This document shows positions 29,615-60,052 of a DNA stretch of 64,000 nt, piece by piece; position 1 is the first letter of the stretch, and each line of letters opens with the position of its first letter. The notes under the pieces were generated by a model that was not told where the DNA came from, searched no databases, and was given only the letters and a program-made list of their open reading frames with translations. The position numbers were made by a program, and so were the translations under genes. This DNA is from an uncultured Gemmatimonadota bacterium (GTDB lineage: Bacteria > Blakebacterota > Blakebacteria > Blakebacterales > CAYUVJ01). The stretch covers positions 18-64,017 of the forward strand of contig CAZFHZ010000006.1 in NCBI GenBank assembly GCA_964519015.1, in the 5' to 3' direction.

Positions 29615-30972
29615 AACCCGTACTGCCGGATCTTGTAGCGTAGTGCCCGGGTGGAGAGACCGAGCAGCTCGGCGGCCCGGGTCCGGTTGCCGCCGACGTT
29701 TTCCAGCACGCGCTCGAGGATTCTCCGTTCGGTCCGCTCGATCTGTTCCTTCAGGGTCATCCGTTCGACTTCGCTCTCCCCACTCCCATCCTCCTCCCAG
29801 CCGCTCCGGCCCAGGATGTTCAGGTGTTCCTCCCCCAGCACATCCCCTTCGGCCAGCACCACCGCGTTCTCGATACAGTTCTCCAGTTCCCGTACGTTGC
29901 CCGGCCAGTCGTACTCCATCATGGCGTCGAGCGCACCCTGGGTGATCCGCTTCGGAGTCGCCGGGTTGCGTTCCGCCAGCCGGCGGATGAAGTGATCGAT
30001 CAGGGCGGGGATGTCCTGTTTGCGCATACGCAGGGGGGGGATGTGGACCGGCACCACGTTGAGCCGGTAGTAGAGGTCTTCGCGGAAGAGGCCGTTGTCC
30101 ACCATCTCCTTCAGATCCTGGTTGGTGGCCGCCACGATCCGCACATCCACCTCGATCCGGCGGTTGCTGCCGATCCGCTGGAAGGCATGCTCCTGCAGCA
30201 CCCGCAGCAGCTTCCCCTGGAGGTCGGGCCCGAGCAGGCTGATCTCGTCCAGGAAGATGGTGCCGCCGTCGGCCGCCTCGAACTTCCCCTTCTGCATCCG
30301 GTAGGCACCGGTGAAGGCCCCCTTCTCGTGTCCGAAGAGTTCCGACTCGATCAGGGTAGGGGGGATCGAGGCGCAGTTCACTTCGACCATCGGACTGCGG
30401 GAGCGGGGGCTGTTGTAATGGATGGCACGCGCGATCAGTTCCTTGCCGGTCCCCGATTCCCCCTGGATGATCACCGTGGCGTTGGTGGGGGCCACCTTCC
30501 TCACCTTGCGGAAGATGTCCTTCATCACCCCCGAGGCGCCGATGATGTTCTCGAAGGAGAAGCGCTCGGTGACGATGCCGCGCAGTTCCAGGTTCTCCAG
30601 GCGCAGGGCCCGCTGCTTGAGCGCCTTGTCGAGCACGACCAGCAGTTCTTCGATGTCGACCGGTTTGGTCAGGTAGTCGAAAACCCCGTCCTTCATCGCC
30701 TGGACGGCCGTCTCCACCGTTCCGAAAGCGGTCATGACGATGACCTGCGTCTCGGGCCACGATTCCCGAACCCGCCGGGAGAGTTCAAGCCCCGAGAGAC
30801 CGGGCATCTTGAGGTCGGTCAGCAGCACCTCCACATCACCGTGGTCGCCCATCAGGGCGAACGCCTCCTGCCCATCGGGCGCCGTCAGGACCGTATGCCC
30901 CTGCCGGGAGACGATGGTGTTCAGCCCCTGCAGCGTGTTGATGTCGTCTTCCGCGATCAGGATCTTGGCCAT
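29611..30972 (-). CDS. Sigma-54-dependent response regulator (NtrC family)
   Basis: Receiver domain (LLTDLKMPG), AAA+ sigma-54 domain with GESGTGKE and GAFTGA (EKGAFTGA), C-terminal Fis-type HTH. Confidence 0.9.
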   Translation of the reverse strand: MAKILIAEDDINTLQGLNTIVSRQGHTVLTAPDGQEAFALMGDHGDVEVLLTDLKMPGLSGLELSRRVRESWPETQVIVMTAFGTVETAVQAMKDGVFDYLTKPVDIEELLVVLDKALKQRALRLENLELRGIVTERFSFENIIGASGVMKDIFRKVRKVAPTNATVIIQGESGTGKELIARAIHYNSPRSRSPMVEVNCASIPPTLIESELFGHEKGAFTGAYRMQKGKFEAADGGTIFLDEISLLGPDLQGKLLRVLQEHAFQRIGSNRRIEVDVRIVAATNQDLKEMVDNGLFREDLYYRLNVVPVHIPPLRMRKQDIPALIDHFIRRLAERNPATPKRITQGALDAMMEYDWPGNVRELENCIENAVVLAEGDVLGEEHLNILGRSGWEEDGSGESEVERMTLKEQIERTERRILERVLENVGGNRTRAAELLGLSTRALRYKIRQYGL

Positions 30973-36103: not shown

Positions 36104-37354
36104 TCAAACCGTTTCGTCGAATCGCCTCACTGCGAGGGTCACGTTATGGCCCCCGAAACCGAAACTGTTGCTCAACCCCACCTCGAAAGCCCGCTCCACG
36201 GGGGCGTTCGGGGTGTAGTTCAGCGTGCATTCGGGGTCCGGGATCTCATAATTGATCGTGGGCGGGATCCGCCCTTCGCGTACCGCCAGGGTCAGGAAGA
36301 TGAACTCCACCGCGCCGCTGGCGCCGAGCAGATGGCCCGTCATCGATTTGGTGCTGCTGATGTTCAACTCACCGGCTCCGGGCCCGAAGACCTCGCCGAT
36401 GGCCAGACTCTCGACCGCGTCGTTGTACCGGGTGCTTGTTCCGTGGGCGTTGATGTAGCCGACCTCTTCGGGGGCGGCCCCGGACATCCGCAGCGCCATC
36501 CGCATGCTATCCGCCATCCCCTCCCCCTTCGGGTCGGGAGTGGTCATGTGATAGGCGTCGGCCGTCTGCCCGCCGCCGATGAACTCGGCGTAGATGCGTG
36601 CCCCGCGGGCCCGGGCGTGCTCCAGGGTCTCCAGCACCACCAGGCCGGCCCCTTCGGCCATGATGAAGCCGTCGCGCCCGGCGTCGAAGGGACGGCTGGC
36701 GCGCTGCGGTTCGTCGTTACGCGTGCTGAGTGCCTTCATGGCGCAGAAACCGCCCACGGCCAGCGGGGTGATCGGAGCCTCGGTCCCCCCGGCCAGCATG
36801 ATGTCGGCGTACCCGAGCTGCAGCAGGTTCCAGGCGTCGAGCAGGGCGTGAGCAGCGGAGGCGCAGGCGGAGACGGTGGAGTAGTTGGGTCCCCGCAGCC
36901 CGTAGCGGATGCTGATGTCGCCGGCCGCCATGTCACCGATCATCATCGGGACGAAGAAGGGACTGATACGGTCGGGCCCCTTCGCGGCGAGGACGTTGGC
37001 CTGGTCCTCCAGGGTCTTGATGCCGCCGATACCAGAGGCGATGATGACGCCGAAACCGCGGCGGTCGATCCGCTCCAGGTCGATCCCGCTGTCCTGGAGC
37101 GCCTCCGCGGCCGCGATGTTGGCATAGACCAGGAAGGGGTCGGCGCGACGGGCCTCCTTCCGCTCCATCCGGCTGCGCTCGAGGTCGAAGGGGAGCACCT
37201 CGGCGGCGATACGCGTGGTATAGGCGGAGGCGTCGAACCGGGTGATCGGTCCGACCCCGGAACGCCCTGCCAACACGCTCTCCCACGACTGCCGGGTGTC
37301 GACACCCACGGGGGACAGTGTACCCAGACCCGTCACGACGATACGTCGTCGCAC
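36104..37354 (-). CDS. fabF: 3-oxoacyl-ACP synthase II
   Basis: Full-length KAS II; active-site Cys region, ...NSFGFGGHNVTLAV C-terminus. Confidence 0.95.
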   Translation of the reverse strand: MRRRIVVTGLGTLSPVGVDTRQSWESVLAGRSGVGPITRFDASAYTTRIAAEVLPFDLERSRMERKEARRADPFLVYANIAAAEALQDSGIDLERIDRRGFGVIIASGIGGIKTLEDQANVLAAKGPDRISPFFVPMMIGDMAAGDISIRYGLRGPNYSTVSACASAAHALLDAWNLLQLGYADIMLAGGTEAPITPLAVGGFCAMKALSTRNDEPQRASRPFDAGRDGFIMAEGAGLVVLETLEHARARGARIYAEFIGGGQTADAYHMTTPDPKGEGMADSMRMALRMSGAAPEEVGYINAHGTSTRYNDAVESLAIGEVFGPGAGELNISSTKSMTGHLLGASGAVEFIFLTLAVREGRIPPTINYEIPDPECTLNYTPNAPVERAFEVGLSNSFGFGGHNVTLAVRRFDETV

Positions 37355-37403
37355 GTTCGACCTGCTTTCGAGGCAGTGGACCGGTGGTGGCCGGTCGCGA
37401 CGG

Positions 37404-37643
37404 TTACTGATTCAGGTGCTGGTCCAGGTAGGCGACCGCTTCGCCGACGGTGCGCATCTTCTCCGCGTCCTCGTCGGGGATCTCGAGGTCGAACTCCTCC
37501 TCGAAAGCCATGACCAGCTCGACGGTGTCCAGGGAGTCGGCGCCCAGGTCGTCGACGAACGAGGCTGCGGCGGTCACCTGTTCGGCATCCACGCCGAGCT
37601 GCTCGACGATGATGTTCTTGACGCGTTCCTCGATGCTTGCCAT
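37404..37643 (-). CDS. acpP: Acyl carrier protein
   Basis: [18 protein letters not shown]...[19 protein letters not shown] with the phosphopantetheine Ser in DSLD. Confidence 0.95.
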
Positions 37644-37738
37644 ACGGGACTCCTTGTGCCTGTCACGGGGTTGGGGTGGTTCTTCCCCCGGAGCCGGCGG
37701 CTCCGACCCCCGCAGTTTATGCAATCCGGGCCTCTTGT

Positions 37739-37774
37739 CTAGTGTCCTGAGTCAGAATTTCGCATCATTTCGTT
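37739..37774 (-). promoter_or_regulatory. Conserved AT-rich ~36-nt intergenic element, copy 1 (between fabG and acpP)
   Basis: CTAGTGTCCTGAGTCAGAATTTCGCATCATTTCGTT on + strand; 33/36 identical to the copy at 42806..42841; lies in the sense orientation of acpP, ~95 nt upstream of its ATG. Confidence 0.5.
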
Positions 37775-37790
37775 GTGCCGACGTCCTTTA

Positions 37791-38537
37791 TCACATGTAC
37801 AGTCCACCATCCACCTGGATGGTCTGACCGGTCAGGTAGCCTGCCCGGGGAGAGACCAGGAAGGCGATCACCTCCGCCACATCCTGCGGGGTCCCGGCCC
37901 GTCCGAGAGCGACCTGCCGCAGGTAGGCCGCCTTGACCTCCTCGGGGAGCTGTTCGGTCATCTCGGTCTGGATATAGCCGGGAGCCACGGCCATCACCCG
38001 AACGCCGCGGGAACCGAGTTCCCGCGCGGCGGTCTTGGTCAATCCGACCACCCCGGCCTTGCTGGCTACGTAGTTGGCCTGGCCGGCGTTTCCCATCAGG
38101 CCCACCACCGAGGCCACGTTCACGATCACACCCGATCGCTGCTTCATCATCGGGCGCGAGACCGCTTTGATCCCCAGGAAGGTCCCGGTCAGGTTGACCT
38201 TGAGCACCAGGTCCCAGTCCGTCTGTTTCATGCGCATGATCAGGCCGTCCCGGGTGATGCCGGCATTGTTGACCAGGATGTCGAGCGAGGCGTATTCCTC
38301 CAGCGTGCGCGCCACCGCCTGCTCCCAGGAGGCCTCTTCGGTGACATCGAGGCGGAGGAAGAGCGCGTTGGCCCCTTCCACCCGTAGGTCGGCCGCGGTG
38401 GCCTCCCCCTGCTCCTCGATGACGTCGGCCACCACGACCGTGGCACCGTCGGATGCCAGCCGCCGGGCCGTCAGCGCTCCGATCCCCCGGGCTCCCCCGG
38501 TCACCAGCGCCGTCTTCCCCTCCAGTATGCCGGCCAT
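37791..38537 (-). CDS. fabG: 3-oxoacyl-ACP reductase
   Basis: SDR: TGGARGIGA NAD(P)-binding motif, YxxxK catalytic pair; start at MAGILEGKTALVTG. Confidence 0.9.
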   Translation of the reverse strand: MAGILEGKTALVTGGARGIGALTARRLASDGATVVVADVIEEQGEATAADLRVEGANALFLRLDVTEEASWEQAVARTLEEYASLDILVNNAGITRDGLIMRMKQTDWDLVLKVNLTGTFLGIKAVSRPMMKQRSGVIVNVASVVGLMGNAGQANYVASKAGVVGLTKTAARELGSRGVRVMAVAPGYIQTEMTEQLPEEVKAAYLRQVALGRAGTPQDVAEVIAFLVSPRAGYLTGQTIQVDGGLYM

Positions 38538-38550
38538 CCCGCCTCCTCCT

Positions 38551-39492
38551 TCAGTTTGAGACCGCTTCGACCACGGCTGCGATCTCCTCCGGCTCCCCCG
38601 CGCCCGATGCGACCGCACCGGGCACGCTCCGCTTGAGCAGACCCCGGAGCACACTGCCGGGACCGCTCTCCACCCATCGGGTGGTCCCCATCCGGTCCAG
38701 CTCCTGCATCGATTCCGCCCAGCGGACCGGGTAGACGATTTGCAGACCGAGCAGTTCGCGGATCTCCTCGGGTCGCACGGCCGGTCGCGCCGTCACGTTG
38801 CTCACCACCGGGATGGACGAGGAGCCGACCTCCACCTGGCGGAGCGCCTGGCGTACCGGTTCCACCGCGCTTTCCATGAGCGGGGAGTGGAAGGCGCCGT
38901 GCACCTTGAGGGGGATGACCCGCTTGGCGCCCGCTTCCCGGCAGGCCGCTCCGGCCACCTCCACGGCGGCGCGCTGCCCGCTGATGACGGTCTGGTCGGG
39001 GGCGTTGTAGTTGGCCGGCTGGACGATCCCCGCCTTCCCCGCCCGCCGGCAGGCCGCCCGGACCTCCTCGGAGCCCAGACCCATGACCGCGGACATGGCC
39101 CCCGGGTGGGTCTCGCCGGCCGCCTGCATCGACTCGGCCCGGACCTGCACGACCTTGAGCGCGTCGGTCAGGCTGAGGGCTCCGCCCACCACCAGGGCGG
39201 AGTACTCCCCGAGGCTGTGACCGGCGGCGAAGTCGGGACGCACCCCGGCCGCACCCAGTGCGACGGCCATGGCCACCGAGTGGACCAGGATGGCCGGCTG
39301 GGTGTGGACGGTCTGCAGCAGGATATCCTCGGGACCTTCGAACATGATCCGGCGGAGGTCGTAGCCGAGGGCCTCGCAGGCCTGGTCGAAGACGGCCCGC
39401 ACCTCTCCACTCCCCTCCTCATAGAGGAGATGGCCCATGCCCACCGTCTGGGCACCCTGGCCCGGGAAGAGGAAGGTGATCCTTCGGCTCAT
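38551..39492 (-). CDS. fabD: Malonyl-CoA:ACP transacylase
   Basis: FLFPGQGAQ, GHSLGEYSAL active-site Ser. Confidence 0.95.
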   Translation of the reverse strand: MSRRITFLFPGQGAQTVGMGHLLYEEGSGEVRAVFDQACEALGYDLRRIMFEGPEDILLQTVHTQPAILVHSVAMAVALGAAGVRPDFAAGHSLGEYSALVVGGALSLTDALKVVQVRAESMQAAGETHPGAMSAVMGLGSEEVRAACRRAGKAGIVQPANYNAPDQTVISGQRAAVEVAGAACREAGAKRVIPLKVHGAFHSPLMESAVEPVRQALRQVEVGSSSIPVVSNVTARPAVRPEEIRELLGLQIVYPVRWAESMQELDRMGTTRWVESGPGSVLRGLLKRSVPGAVASGAGEPEEIAAVVEAVSN

Positions 39493-39536
39493 CGTTCGAC
39501 CACCGGTTGAGGGTCGTGGTTACGGCATCCGCCTTT

Positions 39537-40544
39537 TCAGAGGCGGACGATCAGGGAACCCCAGGTGAAGCCGGCCCCGAAGGCGACCAGCAGGACGGTG
39601 CTTCCCTCCGGGGCGCGCCCCAGCTTTCGGGCCTCGTCGAGGGCGATCGGGATGGAGGCCGCCGAGGTGTTCCCATATTCCTGGACGTTGATGTACACCC
39701 GCTCGGGAGGGAGGGCCAGACGCTGGGCGGTCGCATCGATGATGCGGATGTTGGCCTGGTGGGGGATCAACAGGTCGATCCGGTCCGCTCCCAGCCCGGC
39801 CAGTTCCAGTGCCTTCTCGGCCGAGAAGGTCATGGCCCGGACCGCCGATTTGAAGACCTCGGAGCCTTCCATATAGAGGTAATGCTGACGGTTCTCCACC
39901 GTCTGGTGCGAGGCGGGCAGCCGCGAGCCGCCGGCCGGCAGTTTGAGCAGGCGTCCCAGGCTCCCGTCGGCCCCGACGTAGGCGGCCAGCACGCCGCGCT
40001 CCCCGTCTCCCGGTCCGTAGATGGCCGCCCCCGCCCCATCCCCGAAGAGCACACAGGTGCTCCGGTCCTGCCAGTCGGCAAACCGGGTCAGCGTCTCGGC
40101 GCCGATCACTCCCACGATCCGGAACTGCCCGGCGGCGATCAGGCTGTTGGCCAGCATGGAAGCGTAGATGAACCCCGCACAGGCCGCCGAGACGTCGAAG
40201 ACGGGGATCTTGGGCAGTCCCAGCCGGTCTTGCATCACGCAGGCGGTGCTGGGGAAGAGCATGTCGGGCGTGGCGGTGGCCACGATGACGGCGTCCAGGT
40301 CCGCCTGCCCCAGTCCGGCGTCGGCCAGGGCAGCCTTGAGGGCGGCGGCGGCCAGGTCGCTGGTCGCCTGGTCGTCGGCGATGATGTGGCGCCGCTTGAT
40401 ACCGGTGCGGGTGGTGATCCACTCGTCCGAGGTCTCCACCATGCGTTCCAGATCCTGGTTGGTGAGGATCTGCTCGGGCGCGTAGTGCCCCGTCCCCAGG
40501 ATCCGGCTGGCTCCCCGGGTCCGGTCAGTGAAGGTGGGCGGCAT
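39537..40544 (-). CDS. fabH: 3-oxoacyl-ACP synthase III
   Basis: KAS III: active-site Cys in AACAGFIYA; typical length of 335 aa. Confidence 0.95.
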   Translation of the reverse strand: MPPTFTDRTRGASRILGTGHYAPEQILTNQDLERMVETSDEWITTRTGIKRRHIIADDQATSDLAAAALKAALADAGLGQADLDAVIVATATPDMLFPSTACVMQDRLGLPKIPVFDVSAACAGFIYASMLANSLIAAGQFRIVGVIGAETLTRFADWQDRSTCVLFGDGAGAAIYGPGDGERGVLAAYVGADGSLGRLLKLPAGGSRLPASHQTVENRQHYLYMEGSEVFKSAVRAMTFSAEKALELAGLGADRIDLLIPHQANIRIIDATAQRLALPPERVYINVQEYGNTSAASIPIALDEARKLGRAPEGSTVLLVAFGAGFTWGSLIVRL

Positions 40545-41550
40545 GGATCGCTTCCAATCGGGCTTTGATGTGTCCGTTCAGGCCCTCCCGGACCATGCGC
40601 ACGGCGACCTGGATGGCATTGCGGATCGCCTTGGCAGAGGAGCCTCCGTGGCAGATGATGACGACCCCGTCGATCCCCAGCAGCGGGGCGCCGCCGAACT
40701 CCTCGTAGTCCAGGTCCTTCTTGAGTCGCTGGAAGACCGGTGCCATGAGGAGGGCGCCCACCCAAGCCAGGGGGCTGCGGGCCAGTCCCCGTTTGATCCC
40801 GGCGGTCATGAAGCTGACGACTCCCTCGGCGAACTTCAGCAGGATGTTGCCGGTGAAACCGTCGCAGACGGCGACGTTGACATCCCCTCTCAGGATATCG
40901 CGTCCCTGGATGTTGCCGACGAATTCGAGTCCCGACTCCATCAGGAGACGGTGCCCCTCCACGACGGTGTCGGTCCCTTTCCCGCTCTCCTCGCCGATGG
41001 AGACCAGTCCCACCCGGGGCCGCTCGATCCCGAAGACATACTCGGCATAGAGACTGCCCATGATACCGAACTCCACCAGGTTGCCGGGCCGGCAGTCGGG
41101 ATTCGCCCCCACATCCAGGAGCAGGGTCGTACCCGCTTCCGAGGGGAAGACGGTGGCGATGGCGGGACGGGACACACCGGCGAGCCGGCCGAGGGTGAAG
41201 AGGGCCGAACCCATCACCGCACCCGTATTGCCGGCCGAGACCACGGCCTGCACCTCGCCGGCCCGATGCCGGCGCATGGCGACCGCGATGGAGGAGTCCT
41301 TCTTGCGCCGCACGGCTGCGGCCGGTGCCTCATCCATGGCGATGGTCTCGGAGGCGTGCACGATCGAGATGGGGAGGCCGTGGATCATCCGATCGAAGTG
41401 CTCCCGCAGGAGCGGCTCATCGCCGACCAGCACGATCTCGTAGCGGCCCGCACCCGCCGCCGCGGCCTCCACGGCGCCGGCCACGATTCGCTCAGGGGCA
41501 TGGTCCCCCCCCATCGCATCGACCGCTATTCGGATCTTGCCGTCGGACAC
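40525..41550 (-). CDS. plsX: Phosphate acyltransferase PlsX
   Basis: IAVDAMGGDHAPE N-terminus typical of PlsX; 341 aa. Confidence 0.9.
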   Translation of the reverse strand: MSDGKIRIAVDAMGGDHAPERIVAGAVEAAAAGAGRYEIVLVGDEPLLREHFDRMIHGLPISIVHASETIAMDEAPAAAVRRKKDSSIAVAMRRHRAGEVQAVVSAGNTGAVMGSALFTLGRLAGVSRPAIATVFPSEAGTTLLLDVGANPDCRPGNLVEFGIMGSLYAEYVFGIERPRVGLVSIGEESGKGTDTVVEGHRLLMESGLEFVGNIQGRDILRGDVNVAVCDGFTGNILLKFAEGVVSFMTAGIKRGLARSPLAWVGALLMAPVFQRLKKDLDYEEFGGAPLLGIDGVVIICHGGSSAKAIRNAIQVAVRMVREGLNGHIKARLEAIHAAHLH

Positions 41551-41562
41551 GGGTCTTGAGGA

Positions 41563-41745
41563 TCAGACCTCGCGGGGGAAGATCACCTGCCGGCCGCGGT
41601 AGTACCCGCAGTTGGGGCAGGCGCGATGGGCCAGCTTGGGCTGGCCGCAGTGATCGCAGGTGGCCAGGGACGGCGCTGCGAGAGCGTGGTGACTGCGCCG
41701 CTTCTTCTTGCGCGTCAGCGACGTCTTCCTCTTGGGGACGGCCAT
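41563..41745 (-). CDS. rpmF: 50S ribosomal protein L32
   Basis: MAVPKRKTSLTRKKKRRSH...CxxCG...CxxCG; 60 aa from the internal Met. Confidence 0.9.
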   Translation of the reverse strand: MAVPKRKTSLTRKKKRRSHHALAAPSLATCDHCGQPKLAHRACPNCGYYRGRQVIFPREV

Positions 41746-41750
41746 GGGTC

Positions 41751-42287
41751 CTACTCCTTCGGGCTGTCGTCGAGCAGGGGACGCAGCACGGCCCAGCGGG
41801 GATCGTCCGCCCGGTGGCTGCATGAACAGCTCGACACGTTCAAGTTCTCGCCGCAGGTCGGACAGAGACCCCGGCAGTCCGGGCGGCAGAGCGGTTTGAT
41901 CGGCACGCTCAGGATCAGGGCTTCACGCACCGGAGCGTCGAAGGCGATCCAGTCCTCCCCGACAAAGGGAGCCGTCTCGTCTTCGTCTTCCATTCGGAGA
42001 CCGCCTGGTCCCGACCTCAGGACCAGGTCGAGTTCCGTCTCGATCCCGCTCTCAAAGGGCTCCAGGCAACGCCCGCATTCCTGCTGTGAAGTGGCCCGGA
42101 CCACCCCCTGCGCCCGGATCAGGGTCCCGGTGATGGTGAGGGCCAGTTCGAGTCCGACCTCCCCGTCGACCCGCAACAGATCCTCGGGCAGCTCCAGGGA
42201 GGCTCCGGTGGCGGTCAGGGTTCGTTCGTGACGGCCCTCCCCCAGGCCCCGCAGGTCGATCGAGAAAGGCCGGTCCAGCGCCGCCAT
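41751..42287 (-). CDS. yceD: YceD/DUF177-family protein (large-subunit rRNA accumulation protein)
   Basis: Conserved position upstream of rpmF-plsX; C-terminal CxxC...CxxC cluster (CRPDCRGLCPTCG). Confidence 0.8.
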   Translation of the reverse strand: MAALDRPFSIDLRGLGEGRHERTLTATGASLELPEDLLRVDGEVGLELALTITGTLIRAQGVVRATSQQECGRCLEPFESGIETELDLVLRSGPGGLRMEDEDETAPFVGEDWIAFDAPVREALILSVPIKPLCRPDCRGLCPTCGENLNVSSCSCSHRADDPRWAVLRPLLDDSPKE

Positions 42288-42359
42288 GGCTCCCCTCCGG
42301 ACGACAGAACCTCTCAATATAGGTGACCACCCGGCCCCGTCAACCGCACCATCCCGACG

Positions 42360-42791
42360 TCAGAGTCCCGCTCCCAACCCGGCCAGCTCCCGCTCGGTAA
42401 AGAAGAAGAGCACTTCCCGCTTCCCGTTCTCGACCGAATCGGACCCGTGGACCGTGTTCACCCCCACGTCCTGCCCGTAGAGGGCCCGGATGGTGCCTGC
42501 TTCCGCCTTGGTCGGGTCGGTGGCCCCGATCACCCGCCGCAGGTGGGCCACCGCGTCTTCGCGCTCCAGCGCGGTCGCCAGGATCGGTCCCCCGGTCATG
42601 TAGATGACCAGTTCCTCGAAGAAGGAACGGCCGGCGTGGACCGCGTAGAAGGCCTCGGCCTCAGTCCGGGTCAGCCGGAGCAGGCGCAGACCGCGGACCT
42701 TGAAACCTTCCTGTTCGATCCGGGTCAGGATGTCGCCGACGTGCCCGTTCGCCACCCCGTCGGGCTTGATGAGCATGCAGGTGAGTTCCAT
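42360..42791 (-). CDS. ndk: Nucleoside diphosphate kinase
   Basis: MELTCMLIKPDGV...NTVHGSDS active-site His; 143 aa. Confidence 0.95.
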   Translation of the reverse strand: MELTCMLIKPDGVANGHVGDILTRIEQEGFKVRGLRLLRLTRTEAEAFYAVHAGRSFFEELVIYMTGGPILATALEREDAVAHLRRVIGATDPTKAEAGTIRALYGQDVGVNTVHGSDSVENGKREVLFFFTERELAGLGAGL

Positions 42792-42805
42792 TCCCCTCCC
42801 CGATC

Positions 42806-42841
42806 CTAGTGTCCCGAGTCAGAATTTCGCATCAATTCGTT
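42806..42841 (-). promoter_or_regulatory. Conserved AT-rich ~36-nt intergenic element, copy 2 (between sucD and ndk)
   Basis: CTAGTGTCCCGAGTCAGAATTTCGCATCAATTCGTT on + strand; abuts the sucD stop and ends 14 nt upstream of the ndk ATG; contains GAATT-N7-AATTC inverted repeat. Confidence 0.5.
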
Positions 42842-43710
42842 TATGCCAGAGCCTGGGCGACGGTGCGTCCGATCTCGGCCGGGCTGATGCAGACATGCAC
42901 CCCGGCCTCCTTCAGGGCGGTCATCTTCTCGGCCGCGGTCCCGCCGCCGCCGCTGATGATGGCACCGGCATGCCCCATACGGCGTCCCGGCGGCGCGGTC
43001 TGCCCGGCGATAAAGGAGACGACCGGCTTGTCGAGATGCTCCGCGATCCAGGCGGCCGCCTCCTGCTCGGCGTTGCCGCCGATCTCGCCGATGAGGACCA
43101 CGGCGTCGGTCCCCCCATCCTCAGCGAAGAGCTCGAGCAGGTCGGTGAAGGTGGAACCGATGACCGGGTCCCCGCCGATTCCCACTGCGGTGGATTGCCC
43201 CAGTCCGACCGCTCCGAGCTGTCCGACCGCTTCGTAGGTGAGGGTCCCGCTGCGGCTCAGGATCCCCACCCGGCCGGGCCGGTGGATGAAGCCGGGCATG
43301 ATGCCGACCTTGGCCTCCCCCGGTGTGATCACACCGGGACAGTTGGGGCCAACCAGCCGCGCCCCCTTCTCCTGCACCACCTTCTTGGCCCGGGCCATGT
43401 CGAGGGCCGGGATCCCTTCGGTGATGCAGACGATGAGCGACAGGCCGGCCTCGGCCGCCTCCATGATGCCGTCGGCGGCGAAGGCCGGAGGTACGAAGAT
43501 CACGCTCGCATCGGCCCCGGTCTGCGCGACGGCCTCGCGGACGGTGTCGAAGACCGGCACGCCGAGGTGTTCCATCCCTCCCTTGCCGGGCGTGACCCCC
43601 CCTACGACCTTCGTGCCGTAGGCGATCATCTGCTCGGTGTGGAAGGTCCCCTCCCCCACCGTGATGCCCTGAACGAGGAGCCGGGTGTCCTTGTTGACCA
43701 GGAAGCTCAT
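42841..43710 (-). CDS. sucD: Succinyl-CoA synthetase alpha subunit
   Basis: CoA-binding and catalytic His region; [18 protein letters not shown]-type N-terminus. Confidence 0.95.
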
Positions 43711-48761: not shown

Positions 48762-49352
48762 ATGCTTTCACTGACCTGGTGGATCGGACGACCCTGGCGT
48801 TTCATCTGGGGCCCGATGGAGCTCTCCGCCATCGTCGCGGCGACCCTGCTGCTGGGAGGAGGCATCGCGCTCGGCATGCTGCTGGAACGGCGGGACGTGC
48901 GCTGGGCGGTCGCCTGGGCTCGCTGGTTCGTGGCCTGGGTCATCGACTGGGTCGAGCGCAACCCCCGGGCGATCGTCCGGACCGCCCTTCTGATCTGGTC
49001 GGTCAACAGCCTGACCGTGGGGCTGGTCGTGCTGGCCAGCTGGGCCCCCCCGCTGAGCGCGCTGCTGCTGGTGGTTGCCGGGCTCAACACCGGGGTGGGT
49101 CTGCAGCGCCTGGGCGGGACCCGGGCCCTGCTGGTGCTGCTGATGCCGCACGCCTGGATCGAGCTTCCGGCCACCTTGACCGCAGGCGCCGCCGCCCTGG
49201 AGGCGAGCGTCTACACCCTCGGCCTGAACGGATTCGATCCGGTGGCCGACCCGGTCTGGGCGCTCGCCTTCTTCCTCCGCTCCAGTCTGGCGCTGCTGCT
49301 CGGGGCGGCCGTGCTGGAAGCGGCCCTGCTCAGCGTGCGGGCCCAGGAGTAG
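48762..49352 (+). CDS. SpoIIM / DUF95-family integral membrane protein
   Basis: Multiple TM helices; LLMPHAWIELPATL resembles the PHGxxExPA motif of stage II sporulation protein M-family proteins. Confidence 0.55.
   Translation: MLSLTWWIGRPWRFIWGPMELSAIVAATLLLGGGIALGMLLERRDVRWAVAWARWFVAWVIDWVERNPRAIVRTALLIWSVNSLTVGLVVLASWAPPLSALLLVVAGLNTGVGLQRLGGTRALLVLLMPHAWIELPATLTAGAAALEASVYTLGLNGFDPVADPVWALAFFLRSSLALLLGAAVLEAALLSVRAQE
49304..49351 (+). repeat. Direct repeat copy A (3' end of SpoIIM-like gene), partner of 52921..53005
   Basis: GCGGCCGTGCTGGAAGCGGCCCTGCTCAGCGTGCGGGCCCAGGAGTAG; the last 27 nt match 52979..53005 with 2 mismatches. Confidence 0.7.
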
Positions 49353-49380
49353 GCGGTGGGTCACTGCCCGCGGCTTCCGG

Positions 49381-52801: not shown

Positions 52802-52920
52802 GCGAGTACTGGCCTGACCCGCTAGCTGTTTATACTATATATATACGGTAGATACAAGTCAAGCATGGAGAATCAATAGGCGGTCTTCCCCGGAATAGGG
52901 ACCTCCGTTCGTCCGCTGTT

Positions 52921-52995
52921 GCTCAGGGCGGCCGTGCTCTGAGCGGCCGTGCTCTGAGCGGCTGTGCTCGGAGCGGCCAGGCTCAGCGTGCGGGT
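52921..52995. repeat. 15-bp tandem repeat x5 (consensus GCTCWGAGCGGCCGT); expanded copy B of the SpoIIM-gene 3' end
   Basis: Units gctcagggcggccgt / gctctgagcggccgt / gctctgagcggctgt / gctcggagcggccag / gctcagcgtgcgggt; continues into ..ccgggagtag (to 53005), mirroring 49304..49351. Confidence 0.75.
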
Positions 52996-54584
52996 CCGGG
53001 AGTAGGCACTCCGGCGGGCGCCGTGGCCGACCCGGGCGGGACCGGCCCGGCCGGGTCCGGAGCGGGTGCTGGTGCACCCGGCCGGACATGGCTGGTATCG
53101 GGAGCCAGCAGCAGGCTCAGGGAGCACCCCCCGACCAGCAGCAGGATCCCGGTGAAGACGAAGCCGTTCTGGAAGGCCAGCACCTGCGCCCGGTGGGAGA
53201 TCTGGCCGGCAGCCAGCGCGGTGGCCCCGGCCGTCCCGCCGCTCAGAGAGGCCAACCGGGAGAAGGGAATAGAGGCGGCCGGCAGCAGTTCCCCCATGCG
53301 GACCGCGTGCTGGTGGGCGGCGCCGGTAACGTAGGTGTTGAGCAGGGCGATCCCGAAGGCCCCCCCCACCCGCTGCATGATGTTGAGGAAGCTGGCGGCC
53401 GTGGGCACCGACCGGCGCGGCACCGCGTTGATGGCGGCGGTCATGAGCGGGGCCATCATGAGGGCCAGGCCGATCCCCCTCAGGATCTGCGGTCCGATGA
53501 TGCCGGCCGCCCCGGTGAGCGGGTCGAGCCGGCCGTAGAGCAGCATCGAGACGGCCGCCGTGGCCGTCCCGATGAACACCAGCGGACGCGGGTTGAAGCG
53601 GTCGGAGAGCCGGCCCGCCACCGGCATGAAGGCCCCCACCGCGAGCGCTCCCGGCATCATCCAAAGGCCGGTCTGCAGGGTCGTGTAGCCGACCAGGTTC
53701 TCCAGGAAGATGGGCAGCAGGAAGACCCCGCCGAACAGGCCGATCGCTCGGAAGACGGCCAGCGCCATGCTCATGGTGTAGTTGCGGTAGCGGAAGAGGT
53801 TGAGGTCGAGCAGGGGCCTGGCCGCCGAGAACTCCACCCCCAGGAAGAGCACCAGCCCGATCACCGCCAGGGCCGAGGCGGTCAGCACATAGGTCGAGTC
53901 CCACCCCTTCTGCTGCCCGTTGGAGAGGGCCAGCAGTCCGGCGATCAGGAAGAGGGAGAGGAAGGCGTAGCCCAGGACGTCGAGCCGGGAGGGCTGCTCA
54001 CTCCGTTCATCATGCCGTTTCATCACGATCAGCCCGGTGGCCAGCAGGAGCACCCCGATCGGCAGGTTGACCGAGAAGATGCTCCGCCAGCCGAGCCAGT
54101 CGGTCAGGTAGCCCCCCAGGGTGGGTCCCACCGCCGGTCCCACCATGATCCCCATCGACCAGATCCCCAGCGCCCGGCCCCGCTCGTGCGGCTCGAAGAG
54201 GCTGGCCACCAGCGCCATCCCGATCGGCTGGATGGCCCCTCCGCCGACCGCCTGCACGACGCGGGCGAGGATGAGCGACTCCATACTCCAGGCCAGCGCA
54301 CAGAAGGCGGAACCGAGCGTGAAGAGGAAGAGACTGCCCAGGTAGAGGGTCTTGTAGGTCACCCGGTCGGTCAGCCAGCCGATCAGCGGCATGGCGACCG
54401 CGCTGGCCAGCATGAAGGCGGTGGCCACCCATTCGATGGCCTCCCGGTCCACCCCGAAGGCGCTCATCATGTGCGGCAGGGCGACGTTGACGATGCTCGA
54501 GTCGAGGATCGCCATCAGGGTCCCGGTCATCACGATGCCCAGGACCAGCCAGCGGTAGTAGCGACCCGGGGAGGGATCGCTCAT
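52983..54584 (-). CDS. emrB: MFS transporter, DHA2 (EmrB/QacA, 14-TMS) drug-efflux family
   Basis: MFS motif GWLTDRVTYKTLYL / LARVVQAVGGGA; 14 predicted TMs; 4-bp overlap with emrA stop; Pro/Ala-rich C-terminal tail overlaps the tandem-repeat region. Confidence 0.85.
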   Translation of the reverse strand: MSDPSPGRYYRWLVLGIVMTGTLMAILDSSIVNVALPHMMSAFGVDREAIEWVATAFMLASAVAMPLIGWLTDRVTYKTLYLGSLFLFTLGSAFCALAWSMESLILARVVQAVGGGAIQPIGMALVASLFEPHERGRALGIWSMGIMVGPAVGPTLGGYLTDWLGWRSIFSVNLPIGVLLLATGLIVMKRHDERSEQPSRLDVLGYAFLSLFLIAGLLALSNGQQKGWDSTYVLTASALAVIGLVLFLGVEFSAARPLLDLNLFRYRNYTMSMALAVFRAIGLFGGVFLLPIFLENLVGYTTLQTGLWMMPGALAVGAFMPVAGRLSDRFNPRPLVFIGTATAAVSMLLYGRLDPLTGAAGIIGPQILRGIGLALMMAPLMTAAINAVPRRSVPTAASFLNIMQRVGGAFGIALLNTYVTGAAHQHAVRMGELLPAASIPFSRLASLSGGTAGATALAAGQISHRAQVLAFQNGFVFTGILLLVGGCSLSLLLAPDTSHVRPGAPAPAPDPAGPVPPGSATAPAGVPTPGPAR

Positions 54585-57619: not shown

Positions 57620-59068
57620 ATGAACCTGTCGAGCCCGACCCTGCTCTTCTGCGCCCGCGAAGAGCTGGAGACCCAGTTGCGCGGACAGATCCAGGAGGGC
57701 GCCACCTACCTGGTGCGGGCCCCCCACTGGGAGGCCTTCTCGCGCCTGGTGGCCCAGCTCGTGTTCGGGGTCGTGGTGGTCGACTTCCGCCTCCTGGTGG
57801 ACCGGGAGAGTGCGCTCGATCCCGCCGCCCTCGAGCGACTGGTCGAAGAGGCGGCCGAGTCGAACGCCCAGGTGCGCCTGCTGGTCTTCGATGTGCCCGG
57901 CGAGGGACTCTTCGAGACCCTGCTCACCGCCGGAGTGCACGACGTGCTGCTGGAACCGGTGGCCCTGCGGGAACTGGTCCTGCGCCTGGAGCGCGCCCTG
58001 GACGCCTACGCCTGGCTCGCCCAGCGTAACTACTACGTCGGCAAGAGCGGTCACATCTTCCGGGTGGAGGACATTGTCGGGGACAGTCCCGGCATGCTCC
58101 AGATCTTCGATCAGGTGCGCCGGCTGGCCCCCAGCCGCACCCCCGTGCTCATCACCGGCGAGACCGGTTCGGGCAAGGAACTCATCGCCGCCGCCATCCA
58201 CTACAACAGCCCGCGCCGGGAAGGGCCCTTCATCAAGGTCAACTGCGCCGCCCTGCAGGACACCCTGCTCGAGTCCGACCTGTTCGGGCACGAGAAGGGT
58301 TCCTTCACCGGCGCGGCCCGTCAGCGGATCGGCCGCTTCGAGCAGGCCCACGGCGGCACCCTCTTCCTGGACGAGGTGGGGGAGATGAGCCCGGCCGTGC
58401 AGGCCAAAGTGCTGCGGGTACTCCAGACCCAGGAGTTCGAACGGGTCGGCGGCACCCGGCTCATCCGGGTCGACGTGCGTCTGATCGCGGCCACCAACCG
58501 CGTGCTTGAGGAAGCCATCGCCGCCGGGACCTTCCGGGAGGACCTCTACTACCGGCTCAACGTGGTGACCATCCACATGCCGCCGTTGCGGGAGCGGCAG
58601 TCCGACATCCCCCAGCTGGCCCGCTTCTTCCTCAAGAAGGCACGGTACGAGGAACGCAGCCGGGTCGAGGACTTCGACCCCGAGACGCTCGCCTTCCTAA
58701 CAGAGTACCCCTGGCCGGGGAACGTGCGGGAACTGGAGAACACGGTCTATCAGGCGGTCCTGCTGGCCTCCGACCGTCTCATCCATGTCGAGGACCTGGC
58801 CGTCTACCACCGCCCGCGCCATCCGGCCGGAGCCGGCGTGCCGACGGCGGGGAGCACGGCCGGGCCGGCTCCCTCACCGCCGGCGCCGGAGGGCCTCGAC
58901 CTGGAGGAACTGGAGCGGCAGACCATCCTGCGGGCCCTGGACCAGAACGGCTGGGTGCAGAGCCGGGCGGCCGCCCGGCTCGGGGTGAGCCGGCGCGCCC
59001 TCAACTACAAGATCGCCAAGTTCGGATTCACCCACCCGAGCTGGCGGGTCCACCGCGGTCCGGCCTGA
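57620..59068 (+). CDS. Sigma-54-dependent transcriptional regulator (Fis-family enhancer-binding protein) with atypical N-terminal domain
   Basis: Start at MNLSSPTLL (ATG 57620); AAA+ sigma-54 interaction domain GETGSGKE, GSFTGA; C-terminal HTH (QSRAAARLGVSRRALNYKI). Confidence 0.85.
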   Translation: MNLSSPTLLFCAREELETQLRGQIQEGATYLVRAPHWEAFSRLVAQLVFGVVVVDFRLLVDRESALDPAALERLVEEAAESNAQVRLLVFDVPGEGLFETLLTAGVHDVLLEPVALRELVLRLERALDAYAWLAQRNYYVGKSGHIFRVEDIVGDSPGMLQIFDQVRRLAPSRTPVLITGETGSGKELIAAAIHYNSPRREGPFIKVNCAALQDTLLESDLFGHEKGSFTGAARQRIGRFEQAHGGTLFLDEVGEMSPAVQAKVLRVLQTQEFERVGGTRLIRVDVRLIAATNRVLEEAIAAGTFREDLYYRLNVVTIHMPPLRERQSDIPQLARFFLKKARYEERSRVEDFDPETLAFLTEYPWPGNVRELENTVYQAVLLASDRLIHVEDLAVYHRPRHPAGAGVPTAGSTAGPAPSPPAPEGLDLEELERQTILRALDQNGWVQSRAAARLGVSRRALNYKIAKFGFTHPSWRVHRGPA

Positions 59069-59784: not shown

Positions 59785-60052
59785 GGTATCGTCTCCCGCT
59801 GCGTAAACAACGCAAGCCGCATGCCAACCCGGGCCGGCGGACCGGTCCGTTCCGCCTCGATGGTCGTAACGCATTGTCCTGCATGGTAATACAGGATCAG
59901 AACGCGATCTTGGGGGGTCTTCCGACCGGCCTGGCGACCGAGGGATCCAGGGTACTAGGTCACCATATTGTAACAGTGATACGTTAACCGACCTGACTGG
60001 TACGTATTCGTAACAGGTGTTCGCTCCGCTGCCCGCGACGGCCGTAGTAGCC

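Follow-up and report, generated by a model that had tools for sequence, protein, structure and literature searches.

The window analysed here, a 64,000-nucleotide (nt) stretch of DNA from an uncultivated high-GC bacterial lineage, carries two nearly identical copies of a short AT-rich element, one in the gap between fabG and acpP and the other in that between sucD and ndk. We think it probable that both are copies of a small mobile selfish repeat and not a dedicated regulator of acpP or ndk; the specific mechanism that we propose below, a cut-and-paste (DDE) transposon directed to the tetranucleotide CTAG, is held less firmly than this. The repeat appears to form a small, non-coding family present in this lineage and in some other high-GC bacteria, and its presence and absence among close relatives look like the traces of recently active mobile DNA, unlike those of an ancient conserved cis-element. 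An earlier note on this DNA, made from the letters of the window, had taken the conservation between two unrelated intergenic regions to imply function. Recent mobility would explain the similarity instead, given a 37-nt indel that separates the window from a close relative at acpP and the variability of the ndk site. A small dispersed repeat, the last of the four candidates listed in that note, is the one that the copies at unrelated loci and the presence/absence polymorphism support.

The two copies in the window

The pattern CTAGTGTCCYGAGTCAGAATTTCGCATCAWTTCGTT matches exactly twice in the window, at 37739-37774 and 42806-42841 on the plus strand, which confirms the pair reported earlier. 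There is no third copy in the window at up to three mismatches, and 100 dinucleotide-preserving shuffles gave no match. A scan of the window for decayed copies with the 25-nt terminal unit, allowing up to eight mismatches, returned nothing beyond the two known copies, and a repeat finder lists the element as the sole high-identity AT-rich repeat of the 64 kb (family D18). The copies agree at 34 of 36 positions by our recount, against the 33 previously given. Their GC contents measure 41.7% and 44.4% (about 45% had been stated) against 69.3% for the window. All four flanking genes lie on the minus strand, and the printed sequence is hence antisense to them, the sense-strand reading being AACGAAWTGATGCGAAATTCTGACTCRGGACACTAG. 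The element had been said to stand in the sense orientation of the downstream gene; what holds of this is that its orientation relative to that gene is the same at acpP and at ndk. The distance to the ATG is 95 nt for the acpP copy and 14 nt for the ndk copy; at the latter the ndk Shine-Dalgarno sequence sits between element and ATG, and the opposite end of the element enters the sucD stop codon. The two internal dyads reported earlier are not shared, as TGAGTCA is intact in the acpP copy only (CGAGTCA at ndk) and GAATT-N7-AATTC in the ndk copy only (ATTTC at acpP). The gene identities are backed by the Pfam domains of syntenic genes in relatives, namely adh_short (fabG), PP-binding (acpP), CoA_binding/Ligase_CoA (sucD) and NDK. 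The features of the two loci are given below; here and throughout, L-numbers denote loci or contigs of metagenomes, metagenome-assembled genomes (MAGs) or relatives that were compared with the window, and ORF stands for open reading frame.

37743..37779, minus strand: short-form copy upstream of acpP, 37 nt, sense GGCACAACGAAATGATGCGAAATTCTGACTCAGGACA; coincides with the gap in the L017 alignment
37739..37742, unstranded: CTAG at the fixed outer end of the acpP copy, the empty allele of L017 retains it together with the downstream flank ACAAGA, and it probably served as target and does not belong to the insert
37739..37768, minus strand: mini-ORF in the acpP copy, ATG ATG CGA AAT TCT GAC TCA GGA CAC TAG, encoding MMRNSDSGH, with the TAG of CTAG as its stop
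37714..37741, minus strand: sigma-70-like site TAGACA-16 nt-TAAACT, directly downstream of the element and beginning in the TAG of CTAG; flank, not repeat
42810..42844, minus strand: short-form copy upstream of ndk, whose inner 5' end merges with the last sucD codon and the TAA stop (42841-42843)
42806..42809, unstranded: CTAG at the outer, fixed end of the ndk copy; next come GATCGGGGAGGGGA, the region of the ndk Shine-Dalgarno sequence, and then the ATG (42791)
42806..42832, minus strand: mini-ORF in the ndk copy, encoding MRNSDSGH and a stop
37404..37643, minus strand: acpP, 79 amino acids, PP-binding, downstream of the first copy (Pfam of syntenic genes)
37791..38537, minus strand: fabG, short-chain dehydrogenase, upstream of the first copy (start inferred from orthologues of 248 amino acids)
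42360..42791, minus strand: ndk, 143 amino acids, downstream of the second copy (Pfam of syntenic genes)
42841..43710, minus strand: sucD, 289 amino acids, upstream of the second copy (Pfam of syntenic genes)

Filled and empty sites in close relatives

Syntenic contigs of relatives were reached through Ndk homologues, and three sites offer both filled and empty alleles. Among named Ndk proteins the nearest is labelled 'MAG: bacterium' (75% identity), and those of Gemmatimonadales stand at about 64%. The window and L017 share 91.7% nucleotide identity over 17 kb with just five indels of at least 6 nt, and the element or an element-like end is involved in four of the five. In the gap between fabG and acpP, L017 (Ndk 91% identical) has the empty site AAAAGGATGAC/CTAG/ACAAGAAGCCCGG, where the window and its twin at the acpP locus (L013/L001) have exactly 37 extra nt (GGCACAACG...CAGGACA) set directly against the CTAG, the acpP leader being otherwise conserved. 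Upstream of an Xaa-Pro peptidase gene, L006 is filled, whereas the element is missing from L034 and L035 (91% and 84% amino acid identity to L006, respectively), both of which have the sequence ...CTAGATTG... there. Gene order at this site breaks exactly at the fixed end of the element, with a thioredoxin gene upstream in L006 and a divergent AMMECR1 gene in L034 and L035, and the repeat may thus mark or mediate a rearrangement there. The third site, between sucD and ndk, takes a different form in nearly every relative (percentages are Ndk identities):

Window: one canonical short form, reading ctggcaTAA(element)CTAG/GATCGGGG
L036 (92%, the closest): ctggccTGA and then GATCGGGGAAGGAATG, which is the window's flank; no element and no CTAG
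L017 (91%): a single 24-nt copy, decayed
L028-30 (90%): a tandem pair of short copies, of which the second is fused with the Shine-Dalgarno sequence as CUAAGGAGG
L033 (85%): a 14-nt fragment, inverted, directly after the sucD stop
L031 (83%): no element, intergenic distance 2 nt
L024 (73%): no element, intergenic distance 13 nt

Spelled with the window's flank, the L036 junction is ctggccTGA/GATCGGGG, and each of the tandem copies in L028 has a CTAAG of its own. By these comparisons the gap between sucD and ndk appears to be an insertion hot spot. The next gap of the same region, between ndk and yceD, has a decayed element-like end in L017 (GACAGGGCACTAAG) and in L028 (TCTGACTCGGGACAC) and none in the window or L036; such ends may belong to a related or decayed subfamily.

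Some further differences were seen at these junctions. The ndk-yceD spacer of L017 holds a lineage-specific insertion of about 64 nt (L017 7407-7485 against window ~42350-42367), which runs from the CTAG at the ndk stop codon to a terminal GACAGGGCACTAAG, an element-like end. For ndk, the window has the stop TGA (42360-42362) and L036 (505-507) has TAG, within gCTAGc; these are sister lineages of about 92% identity. The sucD stop is TAA in the window (42841-43) and TGA in all relatives, a change that coincides with the inner end of the element.

A fixed outer end and a variable inner end

An alignment of all copies with long flanks places the outer boundary sharply at ...GGACA/CTAG, whereas the inner boundary varies. 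The outer end has the sequence ...TCTGACTCRGGACA (CTAG-TGTCCYGAGTCAGAATTTCGC when written inward from the flank), and the tetranucleotide beyond it is CTAG in eight copies and CTAA in three. The copies fall into the following length classes:

14 nt: inverted fragment (L033)
24-26 nt: decayed short copies (L017, L028)
28 nt: truncated copy (L015)
37-44 nt: short form (window, L010, L004)
About 90 nt: long form (L006_B and L011, with differing neighbouring genes)

At several inner junctions the element shares a few bases with the flank, namely G(T/A)C at acpP, TGA at L015 and, at ndk, GGCA, which it has in common with the sucD end ctggcA.

Folding of the RNA in the sense orientation had been proposed earlier, and the short form proved to have no structure above shuffles (44-nt unit, z 0.14 in sense and +1.49 in antisense). 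The long form has a partial inverted copy upstream, with which the element's inner half pairs to give an imperfect hairpin of about 61 nt, whose foot lies 18-19 nt from CTAG and at whose apex the short form starts. This hairpin rises above background only in L006_B (z -2.64, against -0.09 in L011), and the sole paired position that differs between the two breaks a pair with no compensation.

The long form raises the possibility of a single-strand element of the HUH/Y1 kind, such as the IS200/IS605 insertion sequences or the repetitive extragenic palindromic (REP) sequences moved by REP-associated tyrosine transposases (RAYTs), which would insert beside CTAG without duplicating it, be recognised by its subterminal hairpin and take its orientation from the replication fork. 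IS608 has a hairpin 19 nt from the target at its left end, a spacing much like that in L006_B and L011; the short form would then begin at the hairpin apex, no target duplication is seen at acpP, CTAG is kept in the empty sites, and an orientation bias could reflect targeting of the lagging strand. We nevertheless regard this as unlikely. The short form has no hairpin, that of the long form is significant in one of its two instances and has its variable pair broken, and no second end or second hairpin was found. The separate CTAAG of each tandem copy in L028, and the CTAG that the insertion has brought with it at the window's ndk site by comparison with L036, suit a duplicated target better. 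Moreover, the tetranucleotide of REPs lies at the hairpin foot and not 19 nt away, and no TnpA or RAYT gene was seen in the fragmentary contigs.

On the sense strand the element closes all three reading frames, and the mini-ORF M(M)RNSDSGH, intact in eight canonical copies, is its only ORF and at most nine codons long; no Shine-Dalgarno sequence precedes it in the element copies. These features could be read as those of a portable cassette for translation initiation or coupling, acting at the RNA level, in which the stops end upstream translation, the mini-ORF of eight to nine codons carries ribosomes across, and the RGGA core of the element, 9 nt before the outer end, serves the next gene as ribosome-binding site. 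Indeed, at L010 (carA) and L015 (a thiS/moaD-like gene) the ATG comes 3 nt after CACTAR, and hence the sole possible Shine-Dalgarno sequence in both is the AGGA or GGGA of the element at a 9-nt spacing. The upstream ThiF-family gene of L015 stops 1 nt before the ATG of the mini-ORF; in L028 the element's end fuses to form UAAGGAGG; the three variable positions leave the mini-ORF intact in the eight copies (TCA/TCG, TAG/TAA, ATG-ATG/ATG-GCG); and in the outgroups sucD and ndk lie 2-13 nt apart, implying translational coupling. The copies are, however, so nearly identical that conservation of the ORF has almost no statistical weight, the mini-ORF lacks a Shine-Dalgarno sequence, and by our own estimate three-frame stops are expected in roughly 1 in 8 random AT-rich 44-mers. 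Decayed ndk copies persist though their ORF is lost, acpP and ndk have their own Shine-Dalgarno sequences downstream, and antisense copies cannot work in this way. We therefore doubt that the element exists as such a cassette, an idea that is in any case compatible with a selfish element and does not replace the selfish explanation. In L010 and L015 it seems able to supply a ribosome-binding site, which acpP and ndk, having their own, would not need.

Copies at other loci

An exact 18-mer common to both window copies was scanned in genome and metagenome collections, and a profile made from the copies thus obtained was used to look for more; the resulting sample comprises about 13 independent copies, from fragmentary contigs. 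The genome collection gave four matches to the 18-mer, with a real copy only in L004. The match extends over the whole element at five loci (L004, L006, L010, L011 and L015), and L012 and L007 hold partial copies. Their settings, with genes identified by Pfam, are as follows:

L004 (labelled a Planctomycetota MAG): TPMT gene on one side, FHA-GAF-sigma-54 activator gene on the other
L006: ahead of an Xaa-Pro peptidase gene
L010: ahead of carA
L011: ahead of a gene for enoyl-CoA hydratase
L015: ThiF-family gene on one side, ThiS/MoaD-family gene on the other
L012: partial, between convergent genes and following a thioesterase gene
L007: partial, ahead of a gene with a SPOR domain

The window has no orthologues of the genes that bear the element at these other loci. 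The earlier note had contrasted its functional reading with a generic repeat scattered over hundreds of positions in either orientation; the family is such a repeat in kind, with both orientations represented, but in the fragmentary contigs covered its number is about 13 and not hundreds.

In L006 the profile search found a second, inverted copy directly after the thioredoxin gene. The two copies (867-905 and 1100-1147) are about 195 nt apart with CTAG on both outer sides, so that the pair reads C-TA-(GTGTCC...GGACAC)-TA-G. In the spacer between them, the inner start of the short form has in addition an exact 13-nt inverted match (1011-1023 and 1100-1112; GTTGCGCCGACAG and CTGTCGGCGCAAC), which suggests nested or repeated insertion and deletion events at the site.

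The fixed end faces a downstream start codon in about ten copies and the 3' end of a gene in three, and one copy lies between convergent genes. The skew is suggestive, though not significant (p about 0.09 by our own binomial estimate), and may equally reflect which insertions are tolerated. A binding site for a global regulator, as the earlier note had envisaged, or for a nucleoid protein, common to acpP, ndk and other promoters, would likewise place one sequence in unrelated intergenic regions, and the element does contain the direct repeats CGAAAT (twice, 11 nt apart) and GACTC/GACAC (7 nt apart). Operators are not, however, 95-100% conserved over 36-44 nt across unrelated genes, nor do they occur as precise indels between relatives of 92% identity or with a fixed end and variable truncation. 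The reported dyads are not conserved between copies, the downstream genes share no pathway and the distance to the start codon is not conserved; we consider a regulator site very improbable.

Rfam gave no match over the whole window at gathering thresholds and, in permissive mode over both regions, snoRNA noise only, with E above 1. Collections of viral contigs, plasmids and phages have no match to the element, a literature search with its literal sequence found nothing, and its single open antisense frame, SV[LP]SQNFASFR, had no candidates in a protein database when searched as a peptide. Uptake sequences, Chi and dif sites were tried as candidates and rejected, their consensus sequences not fitting the element.

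CTAG as a probable insertion target

CTAG is almost absent from the window, with 10 occurrences against 181 expected from base composition (observed/expected 0.06). Two of the ten abut the element and the other eight have nothing element-like beside them. The tetranucleotide is already in place in the empty allele at two of the three sites that have one, those of fabG-acpP and the Xaa-Pro peptidase gene, which suggests that it is the insertion target. The upstream genes in L004 and L006_A have this CTAG as their stop codon, in keeping with a target that persists chiefly at stops and in short gaps. With stop codons switching between sister lineages, an ancestral gcC-TAG-G at the sucD stop is plausible too. 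Insertions would be concentrated at few hot spots because there is so little CTAG in the genome.

Two kinds of transposable element with a comparable target preference are known. IS630 prefers for its insertion the TA within 5'-CTAG-3' (Tenzen and Ohtsubo 1991, as cited in PMC2170065), and MITEPsy1 of Pseudomonas syringae, a 100-nt miniature inverted-repeat transposable element (MITE) derived from IS5, inserts at CTAG/YTAA and duplicates those 4 nt (PMC3189936). The C-TA-(...)-TA-G arrangement of the L006 pair is as the IS630 model predicts.

Two other tetranucleotides, CTAA (observed/expected 0.11) and TTAG (0.04), are also depleted in the window, and GATC and TCGA are about threefold over-represented. 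Unusually AT-rich stretches adjoin CTAG at 52822-52900 and 59955-60030 (e.g., CTAGctgtttatactatatatatacggtagatacaagtcaagc), with sequences unrelated to the element; the first is near the part of the window with the lowest GC content (50-52 kb, 62.6%).

Promoters at the two loci

A strong internal promoter was another of the roles proposed earlier. A scan of 37300-43000 with the sigma-70 consensus found no -35/-10 pair inside either copy. The sigma-70-like site TAGACA-16-TAAACT at acpP belongs to the flank and is unaltered in the empty allele of L017, so that this candidate acpP promoter is independent of the element, which would simply occupy the position of an upstream AT-rich element for that promoter. 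A second site, TTGACG-16 nt-TATATT (42316-42343, minus strand), lies upstream of the yceD-rpmF-plsX-fabH-fabD-fabG cluster, with nearly every base conserved among the window, L017, L028, L031, L033 and L036. From this conservation we take it to be probably the real promoter of the yceD-fabG operon.

The element could nonetheless be a mobile promoter in its own right, with a weak, outward-reading extended -10 (TGc-GAAATT) and a start about 7 nt downstream; acpP, ndk and further genes would then have transcripts of their own, and the element would spread as a useful sequence. It does contain TGCGAAATT, with A and T at the key -11 and -7 positions, its fixed end faces the downstream start codon in most copies (about 10 against 3), it sits between operon genes, where an internal promoter is conceivable, and AT-rich inserts can act as promoters in a genome of 69% GC. 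Other miniature elements such as Correia are known to carry promoters, according to work cited in PMC3575422. We think such a role improbable, though. The best internal hexamer matches TATAAT at three of six positions and has no -35 partner, while the real promoters of the lineage look canonical, as at yceD, and L017 keeps the sigma-70-like site and the whole acpP leader with no element. The copies in L004, L006_A and L012 aim at gene 3' ends or a convergent terminator, the distance to the ATG spans 3 to 95 nt, and the orientation skew falls short of significance. The consensus sequences of sigma-54, extracytoplasmic-function (ECF) and sigma-32 promoters were also tried on the element and do not fit.

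Within the acpP leader there is a GC hairpin, GGAGCC-GCC-GGCTCC (37690-37704, minus strand). The 95-nt 5' region of acpP that holds it is highly conserved between the window and L017, element or not, and the hairpin may represent a structure of the leader or a signal for processing or attenuation.

A proposed origin and what weighs against it

We propose that the family derives from a miniature non-autonomous cut-and-paste (DDE) transposon targeting CTAG or its inner TA, with a choice of target like that of IS630 and certain elements of the IS5 group. Both window copies and most of the others would be one-ended remnants, left either by partial loss of an insertion or when the break made by excision was only partly re-copied from the sister copy and the partly re-copied end was then joined to the flank through a few bases of microhomology. 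Among eukaryotic cut-and-paste elements, abortive gap repair or later deletion leaves incomplete copies joined by microhomology in this manner. The hairpin apex of the long form would be a natural stalling point for the re-copying. As CTAG is rare and persists mainly at stop codons and in short intergenic gaps, insertions would pile up at hot spots such as that between sucD and ndk. The element would be tolerated between operon genes because it is unstructured, closes the three sense frames and has a Shine-Dalgarno-like RGGA core 9 nt before its outer end, and any effect of it on expression is likely to be incidental.

Several observations weigh against this proposal. The window copies have no second terminal inverted repeat, being single, in direct orientation and 5 kb apart by both the profile search and the repeat finder, and an inverted terminal pair was seen at L006 only. 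There, the upstream neighbour is unlike that in L034 and L035, and the pair may stem from one insertion or from two. No target duplication exists at the inner end, the acpP inner junction GGACGTC/GGCAC having neither TA nor CTAG. At the third site with an empty allele, that between sucD and ndk, the closest such allele (L036) lacks CTAG, and the pre-existence of the target thus holds for two sites in three. No transposase or full-length parent turned up, though no search aimed at them was made. The sample is one of about 13 independent copies on fragmentary contigs, and the orientation skew could be a mark of selection for a function. Lastly, the same inner boundary, GTCGGCRC, occurs at unrelated loci (acpP and L010), and hence the short form is perhaps a discrete mobile unit and not a random remnant.

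One alternative combines one-ended copying with the translational features of the element. Starting from its fixed outer end, the element would be copied inward where the DNA is nicked or broken beside CTAG, the copying being target-primed or synthesis-dependent, perhaps templated by RNA, and often halting early, notably at the hairpin apex; the flank would be joined by microhomology, much as in a bacterial form of 5'-truncating retroposition. A built-in cassette of three-frame stops, mini-ORF ending in TAG and RGGA core would have evolved in it, allowing it to persist within operon junctions and to take over translation initiation of the next gene. This combination as a whole seems to us a slim prospect.

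Certain simpler accounts of individual sites were tried and rejected. AGGAC is no target duplication at acpP, since RGGAC belongs to every copy. A simple slippage deletion in L017 predicts a product that does not match, and the head-to-head decayed copy that appeared to follow the CTAG in L011 has only 12/33 identity.

If the selfish reading is right, the family is an undescribed miniature repeat with a fixed end at a very rare tetranucleotide and a variably truncated inner end. Its insertions are concentrated at junctions of core-metabolism operons (sucD-ndk, ndk-yceD and fabG-acpP), where they cause most of the indel variation. Should the one-ended copies themselves be the mobile unit, or should the element supply ribosome-binding sites, it would offer a model for selfish DNA in compact operons. 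More generally, and as a caution when genomes are scanned, near-perfect identity of two unrelated intergenic regions of one genome is more often a sign of recent mobility than of shared regulation, and one syntenic relative can settle the question between the two.

Other repeats in the window

Two further repeats were observed. A tandem-like repeat of about 15 nt (TGCTCNGAGCGGCYG) occupies 52920-53007 and has a related 58-nt copy at 49297-49354, 3.6 kb away (family D1). The longest inverted repeat of the window (I1) pairs 29851-29933 with 58686-58768, its 83-nt arms being 75% complementary across a distance of 28.7 kb; the two arms probably represent paralogous coding segments.

Comparison with known systems

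The class of putative mobile promoters comprises highly similar sequences upstream of unrelated genes and expressly takes in some that may have no promoter function (Matus-Garcia, Nijveen and van Passel 2012; PMC3575422). Their definition is operational, at least 80% identity over at least 50 nt at positions -150 to -50 (PMC3575422). The element resembles them in its high similarity upstream of unrelated genes within and between genomes, but the window copies are shorter (36-44 nt) and one of them lies at -14 to -50.

The ends of IS200/IS605 elements and of their miniature derivatives, the palindrome-associated transposable elements (PATEs), lie next to a specific tetranucleotide without duplicating it and show a strong orientation bias. 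A non-duplicated tetranucleotide is seen at acpP and at the peptidase gene; the contrary holds between sucD and ndk, where L036 lacks CTAG, and in the L028 tandem, with a CTAAG for each copy. Unlike the element, these systems need hairpins at both ends, whereas the short form has none and the long form one, with no support from covariation.

REPs and their hairpin-forming inverted doublets (REPINs) are small extragenic repeats, often between co-directional genes, that are mobilised by RAYT transposases, singlets being regarded as decayed halves of the doublets (as described in PMC8049555, and in Bertels and Rainey 2011 as cited). The element is similarly small, extragenic and placed between co-directional genes, with doublets and decayed singlets. 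REPs are, in contrast, GC-rich imperfect palindromes with the tetranucleotide at the foot of the hairpin, and the element is AT-rich and unstructured, with CTAG 18-19 nt from the hairpin of the long form.

The MITEs of the IS5 group, such as MITEPsy1, share with the element an outer flank of CTAG (eight copies) or CTAA (three), i.e., YTAR, and the element ends in ...ACA-3' if CTAG is counted as flank. They differ from it in that its solo copies have no inner duplication and its terminal repeat, at about 40 nt, far exceeds the IS5-type ends (16-18 nt) in length and does not resemble them. The MITEs of the IS630/Tc1-mariner group (RUP of Streptococcus pneumoniae, Correia/NEMIS of Neisseria) are also short, non-coding, dispersed, mostly intergenic and polymorphic between strains, have a CTAG target and agree with the inverted pair of L006. 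Most copies here are instead single-ended, 14-44 nt long, with no second inverted repeat and no inner duplication; the terminal sequence of the element is not known as an IS630-family end, and no parent insertion sequence is known. Like the element, Correia sequences sit in operon junctions, where they can affect expression, as reported in work cited in PMC3575422.

The element is thus not assignable to the MITE, REP/REPIN, IS200/IS605 or mobile-promoter class, as it lacks features that define each of them. With MITEs it has in common that it is short, non-coding, multi-copy, dispersed and polymorphic, with filled and empty sites at fabG-acpP, the Xaa-Pro peptidase gene and sucD-ndk, and it behaves like the remnant of a miniature non-autonomous transposon.

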